DNA of 20,000 nucleotides, taken from an uncultured virus (IMG/VR IMGVR_UViG_3300042691_006655). Its lineage: Duplodnaviria; Heunggongvirae; Uroviricota; Caudoviricetes. Positions within the stretch are counted from its first letter, which is position 1. Each line of letters opens with the position of its first letter. The notes under the pieces are model-generated. The model saw only the letters and a list, made by a program, of their open reading frames with translations, did no database searches and was not told the origin of the DNA. The stretch lies in the IMG/VR virus record IMGVR_UViG_3300042691_006655. One strand, 5' to 3'. The position numbers were made by a program, and so were the translations under genes. This document shows, one piece after another, positions 11,791 through 15,698 of the stretch.

Positions 11791-11973
11791 TTAATAAGAT
11801 CCATCATCGATAGCTCCACGAACCCATACTGGTCCAATTGAAATCATAAATCCATAATTTTTAGGATTTAAATCATCTGGCTGAATACCAGTAAATTTTA
11901 ATTCCCAATGGCACGGATTAAAAACCAATCCCATCCACAATCCAGAATATTTAAGATAATTCTTTAACTTCAT
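11791..11973 (-). CDS. Hypothetical protein
   Basis: 60-aa ORF with an aromatic-rich, beta-like pattern; packed between neighbouring genes. Confidence 0.6.
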   Translation of the reverse strand: MKLKNYLKYSGLWMGLVFNPCHWELKFTGIQPDDLNPKNYGFMISIGPVWVRGAIDDGSY

Positions 11974-12514
11974 CGCATAATCCTAACTTTTTTGCTTCAG
12001 AGGGACTTAACCATATATCTTGTGGTGGTAACAAAACTTCTCTAATTTTGTCGTCACTGAGACCAGTACATTTTTTATAATGCTTGATCATCTTTTTAGT
12101 AGTTAAATCAAACTCTTTTACTGTTGCGAATAATTCGTGTTCTTTACCAAAAGCACCCCAAGAATATTGGTGAGAAAGAATTGATGTATTTGGTGTAAGA
12201 ATACGATTTCCCTTTTCTCCAGCAATAAAAATCATAAGACCTGCTGATGCGATTTGTCCTAATCCTATTGTTCTAATAGGAATAGCAGAACCACGCATTG
12301 TATCAATAACAGCAAACGCTGCATTCAAGTCACCACCTGGAGAAGTGATTACTAAATTTAACATTTCTGGTCTTTCCTCTGAAAAGTTAGTGTCAAAAAT
12401 CCATTCAACAATACTTTTACAAGAAGCCAGTGTTACTTCTTCCATCAATAGAAAAAATGAGTGTTGCGATTGTTCTTCTTTTAATGATAAATTCAATTTA
12501 TTAAGCATACTCAT
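11951..12514 (-). CDS. clpP: ClpP-like serine protease subunit
   Basis: 'ITSPGG', catalytic Ser in 'GQIASAG', His in 'ILSHQ', Asp in 'QDIWL', and 'EAKKLGLCD'. Confidence 0.88.
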   Translation of the reverse strand: MSMLNKLNLSLKEEQSQHSFFLLMEEVTLASCKSIVEWIFDTNFSEERPEMLNLVITSPGGDLNAAFAVIDTMRGSAIPIRTIGLGQIASAGLMIFIAGEKGNRILTPNTSILSHQYSWGAFGKEHELFATVKEFDLTTKKMIKHYKKCTGLSDDKIREVLLPPQDIWLSPSEAKKLGLCDEVKELS

Positions 12515-13362: not shown

Positions 13363-13403
13363 TTTACTTCTCCTTTGTGTGTTGTGTGAAATGGAAGTTT
13401 TGT

Positions 13404-13437
13404 AGGGTTCTTCCAACCCTCGTGTATAATTATTTAG
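13404..13437 (-). promoter_or_regulatory. Late promoter box CTAAATA (13431-13437) followed by a 5' hairpin AGGGTT-N5-AACCCT (13404-13420)
   Basis: Motif and perfect 6-bp inverted repeat are seen directly in the intergenic leader. Confidence 0.5.
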
Positions 13438-13440
13438 GAA

Positions 13441-13656
13441 TTATTTCTTTGCTGCTTCAGCTTTTTTATCATCCTTTTTCTCTACTTTCTTAGGAGTAGG
13501 TTTAGGAGAATCTGGTAATGGTGGACACTTACCATTTTTATCTTTCTTTACACAATTATCATTTTGTACTGTTTTTGCATCTGCTTTCTTTGCAGGTTCT
13601 GCTGCGAAAGAAACAGCTGCGAACATCATTAGTACTGCAGTTAGTAATGCTTTCAT
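13441..13656 (-). CDS. Small secreted Lys/Ala/Pro-rich protein with Sec signal peptide
   Basis: Signal-like MKALLTAVLMMFAAVSFA|AEP; AAGGA RBS; two Cys (C-x8-C) in a low-complexity mature region. Confidence 0.75.
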   Translation of the reverse strand: MKALLTAVLMMFAAVSFAAEPAKKADAKTVQNDNCVKKDKNGKCPPLPDSPKPTPKKVEKKDDKKAEAAKK

Positions 13657-13774
13657 TTTACATTTCCTTTTATAAAAGTTAAGTTAACATCTAACATCAG
13701 TTCGTCACTATCATCACAGTACAAGATACCTATGGGTATCGGTTGCTGTTGTGTAGCAAAGACTTACTAATTCG

Positions 13775-13940
13775 TGGTAGGTTATTCTGTTACGAGGAAA
13801 CCTACCGAAACCCTAAGCAGTGTTTAGGCTGCTAATGCGAACTGTGCGTCGTTTGCGTTTACGTTGTTTACTTTTTACGACTCTCTGTGTCGTGCTGTCC
13901 ACTCTGTTACTAATTGCTACGTCGAAACCTAGTCACCCCC
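13775..13940 (-). ncRNA. ssrA: tmRNA coding piece of a permuted two-piece gene; tag (A)ANDAQFALAA*
   Basis: 5' end GGGGGUGACUAGGUUUCGAC at 13940; tag frame GCA AAC GAC GCA CAG TTC GCA TTA GCA GCC TAA at 13856-13824; terminal stem GGTAGGTT/AACCTACC around 'GTAACAGAA'. The 3' boundary is approximate. Confidence 0.93.
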
Positions 13941-13941
13941 A

Positions 13942-14067
13942 TCAAAAGAAATCTTTTTTAGCTTGTTCTTGGTCTTTTTCAAAGTTAGACCAATCGTAAG
14001 TCACTATAGAATAAATCCAATATGCATTTAAACCTATAATCAACAATAAAAGAAATAGCTTGTCCAT
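13942..14067 (-). CDS. 41-aa predicted single-pass membrane peptide encoded inside the tmRNA intervening segment
   Basis: Not in the ORF track. The sequence reads CCA-AAAGGAATTT-ATG, then MDKLFLLLLIIGLNAYWIYSIVTYDWSNFEKDQEQAKKDFF-TGA. The stop lies 1 nt before the coding-piece G1. Confidence 0.7.
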   Translation of the reverse strand: MDKLFLLLLIIGLNAYWIYSIVTYDWSNFEKDQEQAKKDFF

Positions 14068-14077
14068 AAATTCCTTT

Positions 14078-14141
14078 TGGTGGAGGTGGAGGGAATCGAA
14101 CCCTCGTCCGCAACACCTTTCTCATTGCTTCATACAGCAAT
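14078..14141 (-). ncRNA. ssrA: tmRNA acceptor piece (T-arm, 3' acceptor strand and encoded CCA)
   Basis: GCGGACGAGGGTTCGATTCCCTCCACCTCCACCA. CACCUCC pairs with GGGGGUG of the coding piece, including the G3-U70 alanine determinant. The 5' boundary is inferred from the promoter. Confidence 0.92.
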
Positions 14142-14147
14142 TCTTTA

Positions 14148-14176
14148 ATTATACGTTGTATTTAGTTGCAAGACAA
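14148..14176 (-). promoter_or_regulatory. tmRNA promoter TTGTCT-N17-TATAAT, with a late-type CTAAATA box (14159-14165) in the spacer
   Basis: -35 at 14171-14176, -10 at 14148-14153; same hexamers as the promoter at 11465-11493. Confidence 0.7.
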
Positions 14177-14745
14177 GTATTATTTAAAAATTGTTCAGTT
14201 TTCTCGCCAATAATTCCAGTAGTAACTAGTGAAGCTCTTGGTTGTAAACTTGCGTTAGCAGTACAATGATACATTGTTTGCCAATCAAATGTATGGATAT
14301 CTCCAGCCATCCAATTAGAATACGGAGTATTATCATATTGATAGAAATGTCCAGGAATCCAATCTGATAACATAACAACCACTCGAAGAACTTTACTTGG
14401 ATCGTCACGATTATATCTGGCTAACTTATCCTTATGCCAGTTGAATACCTGTCCAGTCCATTGTACATGAATCCTGTTATAACTTTTCTCAAGACCAATC
14501 ATATCAATCATCTTTTGAAACACTGGTGGTATAGAATGTTCCATATTAGTTAGAACTAAGTTTCTATCACCACCAGCATCTTCAATATAATCTTCTTCAA
14601 GTTTTGTAGATGGAACATCAGTGATCTGGCCAACTGATGTTTTAACTCTCCAGTATCTAATAGTTTCCCATGTTGCTGGAGTAGAAGTATTAATAACTGT
14701 AGTTAAATCATTCTGCCATTCTCCAACAAATTTACCAAGATGCAT
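14149..14745 (-). CDS. 2OG-Fe(II) oxygenase / Asp-Asn beta-hydroxylase-like cupin
   Basis: HxD...H facial triad ('FNWHKD' ... 'MYHCTANAS') and downstream Arg ('PRASL'). Start reassigned to ATG 14745, which overlaps the upstream stop (TGATG). Confidence 0.7.
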   Translation of the reverse strand: MHLGKFVGEWQNDLTTVINTSTPATWETIRYWRVKTSVGQITDVPSTKLEEDYIEDAGGDRNLVLTNMEHSIPPVFQKMIDMIGLEKSYNRIHVQWTGQVFNWHKDKLARYNRDDPSKVLRVVVMLSDWIPGHFYQYDNTPYSNWMAGDIHTFDWQTMYHCTANASLQPRASLVTTGIIGEKTEQFLNNTCLATKYNV

Positions 14746-15698
14746 CAATCTTGAATCGTTCTTGCTAAAGGTAACCATTGGTTTCTTAGATCCTTGATAA
14801 ACTTATCCATACCCACTTGTGTCAATTCTTGTTTGTTGTAATACAAATAGTTTTCAGAATAACGACTTTTCATATCATCGCTGTTGATAACATCTGAAAA
14901 TTTCTTTCTGTACCACTCAACAATATTATCTGGAGTATCTTTTGGGAATGCCAGTAATACTCCAGCAAATGCGTTTAAACCTGGAACTTGTTGTGCCATT
15001 GTAGGGACATCTGGCATGCTTGGATGTTTAGATTCTGTAGTTAAAGCAATTGGCTTAACTTTTCCAGATTTTATTAAAGCAATAGCAGTAGATAGTGGCA
15101 TAATACCAAATTCAACTTCCTTAGCAGCTACTGCAGTAACAGCTTGTAGTGGTCCAGGGTATCTAATAGTCTGAACATTTTTTGTATCACCAGAAATCTT
15201 AGTCATAATATATTCATAAGTTATCTTATGAGCGCCACCACCAATAGCAATAGAAACTGGATTATTAGGTTTCTTTAATGTATCAACTAATTGCTTTGGA
15301 GTATTAACATCACTGTTAGATCTGGCGACAATCACTAATGGACTTTTAGCAATCATGAATGGAGTTTTAAAACTCTCATAGGTATAATTCATAACATCTT
15401 TTTGCCAAATTTCATGAGTGACAAAAATACTCATGTGTGCAACTGCTCCAATAGTGTGTCCATCTGCTTTTTGTTTAACCAAATCATTAAGCATAACAGT
15501 ACTATCTGCTCCAGGTTTTAGATTGATGATAAAATTTACATTCTTATCTCGTTTTTCAACCTCACTAGCGACTAGTCTAAAGTTCATCTCAATAGCAGAG
15601 CCTGGACCACTGCCGATCATAACATTTATTGGTTTTGTAGGTTCCCATGCGAATGCAAGGGTTGGGATAAGTAGCATGGCTACTAAGATTTTTTTCAT
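14745..15698 (-). CDS. Bug/TctC tripartite tricarboxylate transporter substrate-binding protein
   Basis: Signal peptide, then 'WEPTKPINVMIGSGPGS', 'NLKPGAD', 'KADGHT', 'RYPGPLQAVTAV', 'KSGKVKPIALT', 'PDVPT' and 'PKDTPDNIV' motifs. Confidence 0.88.
   Translation of the reverse strand: MKKILVAMLLIPTLAFAWEPTKPINVMIGSGPGSAIEMNFRLVASEVEKRDKNVNFIINLKPGADSTVMLNDLVKQKADGHTIGAVAHMSIFVTHEIWQKDVMNYTYESFKTPFMIAKSPLVIVARSNSDVNTPKQLVDTLKKPNNPVSIAIGGGAHKITYEYIMTKISGDTKNVQTIRYPGPLQAVTAVAAKEVEFGIMPLSTAIALIKSGKVKPIALTTESKHPSMPDVPTMAQQVPGLNAFAGVLLAFPKDTPDNIVEWYRKKFSDVINSDDMKSRYSENYLYYNKQELTQVGMDKFIKDLRNQWLPLARTIQD

Follow-up and report, generated by a model that had tools for sequence, protein, structure and literature searches.

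A predicted small membrane-peptide gene under purifying selection in the intervening segment of a permuted phage tmRNA, whose precursor probably doubles as a messenger

Few RNA genes are catalogued as well as those for transfer-messenger RNA (tmRNA), and a permuted, two-piece form of them is known from Alpha- and Betaproteobacteria, cyanobacteria and aquatic phages (Rfam RF04321 and RF01849-51). In these genes an acceptor piece that ends in CCA comes first, an intervening segment (IVS) follows, and a coding piece starts at a G (G1) and carries a tag frame ending in ALAA, with a promoter directly upstream of the whole; the IVS is short in the Rfam consensus and has been treated as a disposable linker. 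In the literature covered, we found no account of a tmRNA whose IVS or leader contains a protein-coding gene. As far as the available portions of these sources go, a 2025 tmRNA database mentions a tRNA-Ala gene and a repetitive element as IVS contents and no protein-coding gene (PMC11915505), an account of the OM43 phage Melnitz reports a glutamine riboswitch with a tmRNA and no IVS open reading frame (ORF) (PMC9004378), a ribosome profiling (Ribo-seq) study of S. meliloti concerns the tag peptide only (PMC10117765), and a further paper describes no protein-coding gene in the IVS or leader (PMC4131195). Here we analyse a stretch of 20,000 nucleotides (nt), referred to below as the window, from an uncultured virus (IMG/VR record IMGVR_UViG_3300042691_006655). 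The window derives from a T4-like freshwater (lake) phage, with ORFs matching gp32, gp59, a T4 baseplate protein, PhoH and a Clp protease, and contains a permuted tmRNA gene that shares with the described ones the order of its parts, the CCA end, the G1 start, the ALAA tag end and a promoter-like site directly upstream, but differs from them in an IVS of 137 nt that encodes a peptide under selection. We consider it likely that this IVS contains a genuine gene, coding for a small membrane peptide and transcribed within the tmRNA precursor (pre-tmRNA), that this precursor is both that of a stable RNA and a messenger, and that the IVS is a slot in which genes are exchanged.

ARAGORN calls a permuted tmRNA (tmRNA*) on the minus strand at 13733-14170, with the tag ANDAQFALAA*, and Rfam scores the locus at 123.5 bits with RF04321 (tmRNA_permuted; gathering score 47) and at 114.1 bits with RF01850 (beta_tmRNA; gathering score 84). 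The acceptor stem is of the alanine type: GGGGGTG (13940-13934) pairs with CACCTCC, the third pair being G-T, and the latter strand continues into ACCA, the discriminator A and an encoded CCA. The gene order, the acceptor stem and the tag frame with its resume codon and ALAA end are all those of the permuted two-piece family. Along the minus strand CCA (14080-14078) is followed by AAAGGAATTT (14077-14068), an ATG (14067-14065), the remainder of a frame that closes with TGA (13944-13942), a single T (13941) and G1 (13940), so that only 10 nt of the IVS on one side and 1 nt on the other lie outside the ORF. An initial annotation had described a 137-nt spacer filled by a ribosome-binding site and this ATG...TGA frame (14067-13942), with one spare nucleotide, and a 41-residue product with a hydrophobic N-terminal stretch and a charged tail; its coordinates were correct in every detail that we checked, and hydropathy and residue counts agree with its account of the product. 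Relative to the Rfam models the IVS is an insertion of ~123 nt, at a point where the beta_tmRNA alignment has 14 unshown consensus positions, and it is predicted to fold with a minimum free energy of -26 kcal/mol (z -2.11 versus shuffles).

The ORF product is the 41-amino-acid (aa) peptide MDKLFLLLLIIGLNAYWIYSIVTYDWSNFEKDQEQAKKDFF, with a Kyte-Doolittle maximum of 2.18 (mean over residues 4-22) and a tail that holds three K and four D/E. Mononucleotide shuffling of the IVS produced a complete ATG-to-stop ORF of at least 41 codons in 18 of 20,000 cases. Relatives of the peptide, referred to here as the TYDW family, have 35-55 aa (72 distinct complete copies), and W17, T23-Y24-D25-W26 and D32 are invariant among them. 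The frame is intact in all 22 distinct full-length copies that lie in an IVS, a 23rd distinct copy (locus L212) stopping two codons early. A maximum-likelihood codon model on the 22 ORFs gave a ratio of nonsynonymous to synonymous change (omega) of 0.078, the log-likelihood being -1158.96 with omega free and falling to -1282.42 when it was held at 1 on the same tree (twice the difference, 247). By the Nei-Gojobori method (NG86) the median dN/dS, the corresponding pairwise ratio, was 0.16 among the IVS copies, of whose 231 pairs 135 were usable, and 0.20 among all copies, with 986 usable pairs, and in the IVS set 26, 15 and 37 of 41 sites are variable at codon positions 1, 2 and 3, respectively. 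A test put forward in the initial annotation, whether ORF length, ribosome-binding site and hydropathy are conserved with dN/dS below 1, speaks for its reading of the ORF, and comparative sequence evidence strongly supports the ORF as a protein-coding gene under strong purifying selection. AlphaFold2, run with the family alignment, models a helix over residues 2-23, a break at Y24-D25 and a second helix over 26-40 (mean predicted local distance difference test score 94.6), which yields a predicted architecture in which a TYDW hinge links one hydrophobic helix to a charged one. The peptide (P0001) had no match in Pfam; its best match in PHROGs, of unknown function, was not significant (E 0.031), and its best score in the ESM Atlas, 0.81, is below the useful range. 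As judged from these searches, the peptide is outside any described family, and TYDW is a new and widespread family of putative small membrane peptides.

What kind of segment accommodates such a gene? Two scans of viral contigs with patterns for the tmRNA ends supplied DNA for 35 loci and for at least 80 loci. Among the matches listed, to which the IVS counts of this and the next paragraph refer, an IVS was extractable at no fewer than 142 loci and not at 16, and there are 87 distinct IVSs of 28-208 nt, five of which carry a 41-codon homologue of the window ORF. TGAT ends every extracted IVS, coding or non-coding; it was part of the search pattern in the scan of at least 80 loci and absent from the pattern in the scan of 35. 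In addition, every IVS has a closing stem, in which the first 10-11 nt behind CCA pair with the 10-11 nt preceding TGAT. Counted by position from the IVS ends, a MAFFT alignment having put the 5' strands out of register, pairing holds in 91.3% of cells across 86 distinct IVSs, with many compensatory pair types, against 42-54% when the partner strand is slid by 1-3 positions; in the 22 TYDW IVSs it reaches 97.5% of 242 cells. Coding IVSs use this stem twice: the 5' strand is the Shine-Dalgarno (SD)-like sequence (AAAGGAATTT in the window), the 3' strand forms the last codons (AGA TTT CTT T, or (K)DFF), and TGAT contributes the stop codon, TGA. Covariation links the first IVS base to the third position of the final codon, which reads TTT where that base is A, TTA (Leu) where it is T and TTC where it is G. 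All IVS copies have AAGGA or AAGAG 4-6 nt before the ATG, which is also a stem strand and predicted to be paired; the apparent ribosome-binding site is a strand of a conserved closing stem that non-coding IVSs have as well. In L212 (1190-1334) the ORF ends two codons early with TAA and the stem strand AAATTTCTTT is kept behind the stop, a natural separation of coding and structural constraints, which implies that the stem is selected in its own right. The stems of coding IVSs are weaker, with a median of -6.4 kcal/mol (n=34) versus -9.8 kcal/mol (n=69), a difference whose strength is overstated by the Mann-Whitney p of 6e-9, as the sequences are related.

The stem-closed segment is not reserved for one gene. 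Of the 87 distinct IVSs, 24 are spanned by a sense ORF whose start is no more than 20 nt from CCA and which reaches or passes TGAT; 1000 shuffles gave 6.7 such IVSs on average and 17 at most. The shortest of the 24 observed ORFs (19-20 codons in 60-61-nt IVSs) may be due to chance; ORFs covering 70% of an IVS number 26 in sense and 1 in antisense. The view that the linker is normally short and non-coding, also voiced in the initial annotation, holds for most relatives, 63 of the distinct IVSs having no spanning ORF. Unrelated IVS ORFs end in residues encoded by the stem (...KVSL, ...VFL, ...DFF), and clustering of small ORFs revealed four peptide families that occur both in an IVS and upstream of a tmRNA: TYDW, MxDDLTRF..., MK[AT]YE... 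and ...LEVWCxxYGFL. One IVS contains a 122-aa ORF ending in the stem-encoded ...QVSL, so the slot accepts genes well above peptide size. In two IVS types the ORF passes TGAT in another frame and stops at the TAG of GGGGGTGACTAG inside the mature tmRNA, in a 107-nt IVS at L058, L061, L073, L086 and L088 and in a 127-nt IVS at L062 and L133; these ORFs, one of them Cys-rich (CPTC...HKC), would be left without a stop codon once RNase P cuts. Second tiny membrane-peptide genes stand beside the TYDW gene before the tmRNA at L245:1288-1400 and at L259-L261 (...FALVLL and MxDDLTRF types), and a MxDDLTRF relative is found inside the IVS of L045/L066. It seems that small peptide genes are clustered around the phage tmRNA. 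Just downstream of the phage tmRNA at L165 (1903-1977), ARAGORN also identifies a tRNA with anticodon CTA (labelled tRNA-Pyl, amber-reading), with an Rfam score of 40.9 bits.

A peptide-alignment search retrieved 24 viral loci (299 pattern matches) and 74 metagenome loci (251 pattern matches) of the TYDW family, and a clustered protein collection holds 21 family proteins, with 24 representatives at 50% identity, all of 36-60 aa. Of the 99 sequences classified (the window and the 98 loci) two were incomplete and were excluded, which left 97 loci with 72 distinct ORF sequences; the 97 are not independent, as the viral and metagenome collections share contigs. The peptide gene is inside the IVS of a tmRNA at 37 loci, and at 33 its stop codon abuts the acceptor piece (...TGA TATTGCTGTATGAAGC...), with a distance of 0-3 nt in most and of 14-19 nt in L166, L173, L175 and L233. 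A tmRNA lies 100-800 nt downstream on the same strand at 10 loci, no tmRNA was called within at least 400 nt of downstream sequence at 14, and the sequence ends too early to classify at three. At 80 of the 97 loci, then, a permuted tmRNA on the same strand either contains the gene or follows it within 800 nt. Two of the loci assigned to the class with no tmRNA (L223, L255) have a sequence resembling the acceptor piece right behind the stop codon, and a third (L245) has one ~100 nt downstream, beyond another small ORF; Rfam gave no tmRNA at gathering score at these three, and their acceptor-like sequences imply that the true number of tmRNA-free loci is below 14. The tmRNA genes with an IVS copy belong to two Rfam subtypes, beta_tmRNA (the window) and alpha_tmRNA (eight loci: L167, L168, L181, L191, L192, L194, L207 and L227). 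On a FastTree phylogeny of 71 distinct ORFs the state 'IVS or outside' changes five times by parsimony, compared with a mean of 19.7 and a minimum of 14 for shuffled labels, a count that is rough given short sequences and moderate support, and stem-constrained tails may group the IVS copies. Against cultured phages, blastn of the locus matched only 63-67 nt of the acceptor region in 19 records of Stenotrophomonas and Xanthomonas phages (in phage Marzo the annotated tmRNA is on the strand opposite to the match), and tblastn with P0001 and P0014 found no match in the cultured-phage collection. Three weak matches in bacterial genomes (E 5e-6 to 1e-4), none with an ARAGORN tmRNA, were unconvincing as carriers; no ORF of at least 25 aa covers the one at L263.

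Promoter matches would place the peptide gene in the transcription unit of the tmRNA. The best sigma-70-like site in 13400-14400, TTGTCT-17-TATAAT (14176-14148, minus strand; 10 of 12 consensus positions), immediately precedes the acceptor piece. Its sequence is conserved in the nearest virus record (G001) and falls within the 5' part of the beta_tmRNA model; by the position of this site the ORF would be inside the tmRNA transcription unit. At loci where the gene precedes the tmRNA, comparable sites are close to the ATG: TTGACG-17-TATAAT lies 20 nt before it in L258, TTGACA-17-TATAAT is discernible by eye before the peptide ORF of L166, and the -10 boxes of L173 and L248 end 6 nt before it, a spacing that fits a leaderless message. 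The initial annotation had proposed a dual tmRNA/mRNA precursor, an idea that finds support by inference only, from the promoter match that would set the ORF inside the tmRNA unit.

Based on these observations, we propose a model in which the pre-tmRNA probably doubles as an mRNA. The tmRNA promoter would drive transcription of the ORF within the pre-tmRNA, and the IVS would act as an exchangeable expression slot. The closing stem of 10-11 bp, which runs from CCA to 4 nt before G1, may hold both tmRNA halves together, and its purine-rich 5' strand would double as the Shine-Dalgarno sequence, the 3' strand would encode the last three or four residues and TGAT would supply the stop. Initiation most likely takes place on a precursor that is nascent or unprocessed and whose SD is free, either because the 3' strand has yet to be made or because the weak stem breathes. 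Processing of the tRNA type (RNase P and 3' trimming), with a presumed RNase P cleavage next to TGAT by analogy with tRNA precursors, would afterwards separate the tmRNA pieces from the ORF, and the peptide may insert in the membrane and act in trans on some target.

Several observations weigh against this model. The peptide gene is not adjacent to a tmRNA at 24 of the 97 loci, so its function does not depend on a specific tie to tmRNA; the linkage elsewhere could be synteny inherited among related phages, and the loci share contigs. In the predicted structure the SD is base-paired. The promoters are consensus matches, not mapped starts, and one of them is awkward for the model: at L205 (1177-1205) an extended -10 site, TTGACT-17-TG-TATAAT (11 of 12), overlaps the start of the ORF, whose ATG sits between the -35 and -10 boxes, so that the transcript would have no start codon and could not encode the full peptide. 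The arrangement is shared by the similar loci of the 45-aa type, L204, L206, L211, L214-L220 and L224. In RNA data, a search of sequencing runs returned 20 rows with part of the stretch, including six RNA libraries with a share of 0.21-0.23, and in the four RNA runs for which Logan contigs were inspected only the conserved acceptor and coding pieces are covered, at a likeness of 85-99%, which indicates that the metatranscriptome contigs come from relatives. No contig in these four runs extends over 13955-14073, a result that speaks neither for nor against expression of the ORF. One contig of RNA run X16 joins 13947 to 14075 and skips 127 nt, with a shorter side of 27 letters and the letters between unknown; it is probably from a relative with another IVS. 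Finally, G001, which is 98% identical to the window over 13400-13948 and 81% over 14074-14780, has an unrelated 68-nt hairpin without an ORF as its IVS, and the peptide gene is thus dispensable for the tmRNA. The difference is a replacement, not decay. In a comparison with L001, the window and G001 also differ through compensating changes in the helix between the acceptor and coding pieces (14087-14092 with 13916-13921; acceptor TTGCGG versus TTCTGG, coding piece GACGTAGC versus GACAGGGC), so that the 98%-identical block begins ~25 nt inside the coding piece and not at the IVS border; a mosaic junction lies within the tmRNA gene.

Many of these points would be expected if the peptide gene were an ordinary accessory gene in a permissive gap, functionally unrelated to the tmRNA, to its processing and to trans-translation, in an IVS that tolerates any insert provided that the closing stem is kept. 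This explanation, which we regard as plausible but not quite probable, overlaps with our own and differs solely in denying a functional tie between peptide and tmRNA. It accords with the several unrelated ORF families and the many non-coding hairpins in the same slot, with the genes away from a tmRNA and with the closest relative that has none; an abutting stop codon is moreover not unusual given the tight gene packing of T4-like phages. It is harder to reconcile with the 80 loci in or just upstream of a same-strand permuted tmRNA, with the presence of IVS copies in tmRNA genes of two Rfam subtypes, and with a parsimony estimate of about five moves between upstream position and IVS, rather than genome-wide dispersal, on what is a weak tree of short sequences.

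Could the excised IVS itself be the message? In this alternative the stem-closed 137-nt segment survives RNase P and the cut behind CCA as the main template for the peptide. The initial annotation had also raised a precisely bounded mini-mRNA, with peptide synthesis coupled to tmRNA processing, and the analysis gave no support for either part. The stem could protect both ends of such an RNA, and the ORF fills it to 10 nt at the 5' side and 1 nt at the 3' side, but the excised form would lock the SD in the stem and leave a single nucleotide behind the stop codon, at which point ribosomes at the end of an mRNA attract tmRNA-SmpB. Loci of the upstream type encode the same peptide without any excision, and the RNA contigs at the locus leave the IVS uncovered. 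We therefore think this unlikely.

MifM and SecM are arrest peptides that sense membrane insertion; in peptides of this force-sensing type an arrest motif stands at a fixed distance from the stall site, and stalling unmasks a downstream element. By analogy the nascent chain, with its membrane anchor, aromatic TYDW block and acidic run, might stall or slow the ribosome beside a tmRNA piece boundary and so control pre-tmRNA folding or processing in cis. The position of the stop codon, 1 nt from G1 in the IVS or 0-3 nt from the acceptor piece upstream (70 of 97 loci), means that a terminating ribosome would cover the neighbouring tmRNA strand, and a role of the nascent chain would fit the strong conservation of its amino acids. 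However, the distance from the invariant W26 to the stop varies from 12 to ~23 codons, the gene also occurs far from any tmRNA, and Pfam and PHROGs gave nothing, with no arrest motif matched; we find this reading quite improbable. Least credible of all, and already contradicted by the selection analysis, is that the frame arises incidentally in a structured, AT-rich spacer which already contains a purine-rich start and a TGA: non-coding IVSs likewise carry an SD-like RAAG and TGAT, AT-rich DNA commonly yields hydrophobic codons and some short spanning ORFs are probably chance, but this explains neither the omega value and its likelihood support, nor a frame preserved in every full-length IVS copy and only two codons short in L212, nor the same peptide encoded outside any IVS, nor the rarity of such a length among shuffles.

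The model of a precursor that is also a messenger can be carried one step further, to a self-referential bifunctional transcript on which translation of the embedded ORF and tRNA-type maturation compete; we offer this as a speculation that we doubt. If it were true, a ribosome terminating at TGA would cover G1 and the acceptor strand, and an RNase P cut 1 nt past the stop would leave a message ending at its own stop codon, or a true non-stop message in the L058 and L062 types. Ribosomes on the cut message would be substrates of the very tmRNA being made, and peptide output would report the balance between processing and ribosome rescue during infection. Moves between leader and IVS would then have been selected because both positions set the stop codon at a tmRNA piece boundary.

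The features of the locus are collected in Table 1.

Table 1. Features of the permuted tmRNA locus and its intervening segment in the window
Feature	Position	Strand	Basis or remarks
Sigma-70-like promoter TTGTCT-17-TATAAT	14148..14176	-	consensus match; overlaps 3' end of upstream 209-aa ORF
tmRNA acceptor piece (long-helix 5' strand, T-arm, 3' acceptor strand, discriminator A, CCA)	14078..14141	-	ARAGORN, Rfam, sequence; 5' limit inferred from loci whose peptide-gene stop codon abuts ...TATTGCTGTATGAAGC
IVS, 137 nt, CCA to G1	13941..14077	-	sequence, Rfam
Closing stem, 5' strand AAAGGAATTT, contains SD-like AAGGA	14068..14077	-	pairs with 13945-13954; duplex -6.5 kcal/mol
41-codon ORF, TYDW putative membrane peptide (P0001), including stop	13942..14067	-	omega 0.078; AlphaFold2 model
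Closing stem, 3' strand AGATTTCTTT, also (K)DFF codons	13945..13954	-	pairing, covariation
Conserved TGAT: ORF stop and -1 nucleotide of presumed RNase P site	13941..13944	-	ends every extracted IVS
tmRNA coding piece, G1 (GGGGGTG acceptor strand, G3 pairs with U) to ARAGORN end	13733..13940	-	
Tag frame ANDAQFALAA and stop	13824..13856	-	ARAGORN (gene positions 315-347); Rfam alignment end 13824 agrees

In the neighbourhood of the tmRNA, a Clp protease gene (PF00574, E 3.9e-30) lies ~1.2 kb downstream at 11951-12514 on the minus strand, so that the phage carries both a degradation-tagging RNA with an ALAA-type tag and a ClpP-like protease. A 71-aa ORF ~75 nt downstream of the tmRNA (13441-13656, minus strand), with a signal-peptide-like start and a Lys/Ala/Pro-rich body, had no match in Pfam. 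Two genes upstream of the tmRNA, 14745-15698 (minus strand) encodes a TctC-family periplasmic solute-binding protein (PF03401, E 2.4e-21) with a signal-like N-terminus, possibly an auxiliary metabolic gene.

What are the implications of a gene within a tmRNA precursor? The window and about a hundred relatives point to aquatic-phage tmRNAs whose linker or leader regularly carries selected protein-coding genes, with a closing stem that would serve as a ready-made ribosome-binding site and stop codon. If our model holds, the precursor of a stable RNA can serve as an mRNA, and gene callers will see only one half of such loci and RNA annotators only the other; the locus would also be a small natural system in which to ask how translation and RNA processing coexist on one transcript. 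The TYDW family is moreover tied to phage-encoded ribosome rescue, and the target of the peptide may show why phages carry a tmRNA.

Known systems provide partial parallels. The intervening sequence of Coxiella 23S rRNA is removed by RNase III. It contains an S23p ORF and thereby resembles the window in having an ORF within a segment excised from a stable-RNA precursor; in the part of the source available it is described as a 428-nt selfish element in helix 45 whose protein appears not to be made (PMC4990558). The window differs from it in that excision would be of the tRNA type, in the strong purifying selection on its ORF and in a slot that exchanges different genes. A second parallel is offered by dual-function RNAs that are both riboregulators and mRNAs, such as SgrS/SgrT and RNAIII/hld. 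RyhB/RyhP is a further dual-function RNA, to judge from the accessible part of its description (PMC5331693). In all of these, as proposed here, one transcript combines a non-coding role with the coding of a small protein, but both of their roles reside on the mature RNA, whereas in the window the whole ORF is situated between CCA and G1, belongs to neither mature piece and is in the part to be removed (in relatives, in the 5' leader), and the duality would be one of the precursor. The tRNA gene cluster of phage T4 has interspersed small ORFs. As in the window, small phage genes there lie between tRNA-type processing sites in one transcription unit; the T4 ORFs, however, are placed between separate RNA genes, whereas the window ORF is placed between the halves of a single RNA, inside the stem that joins them.

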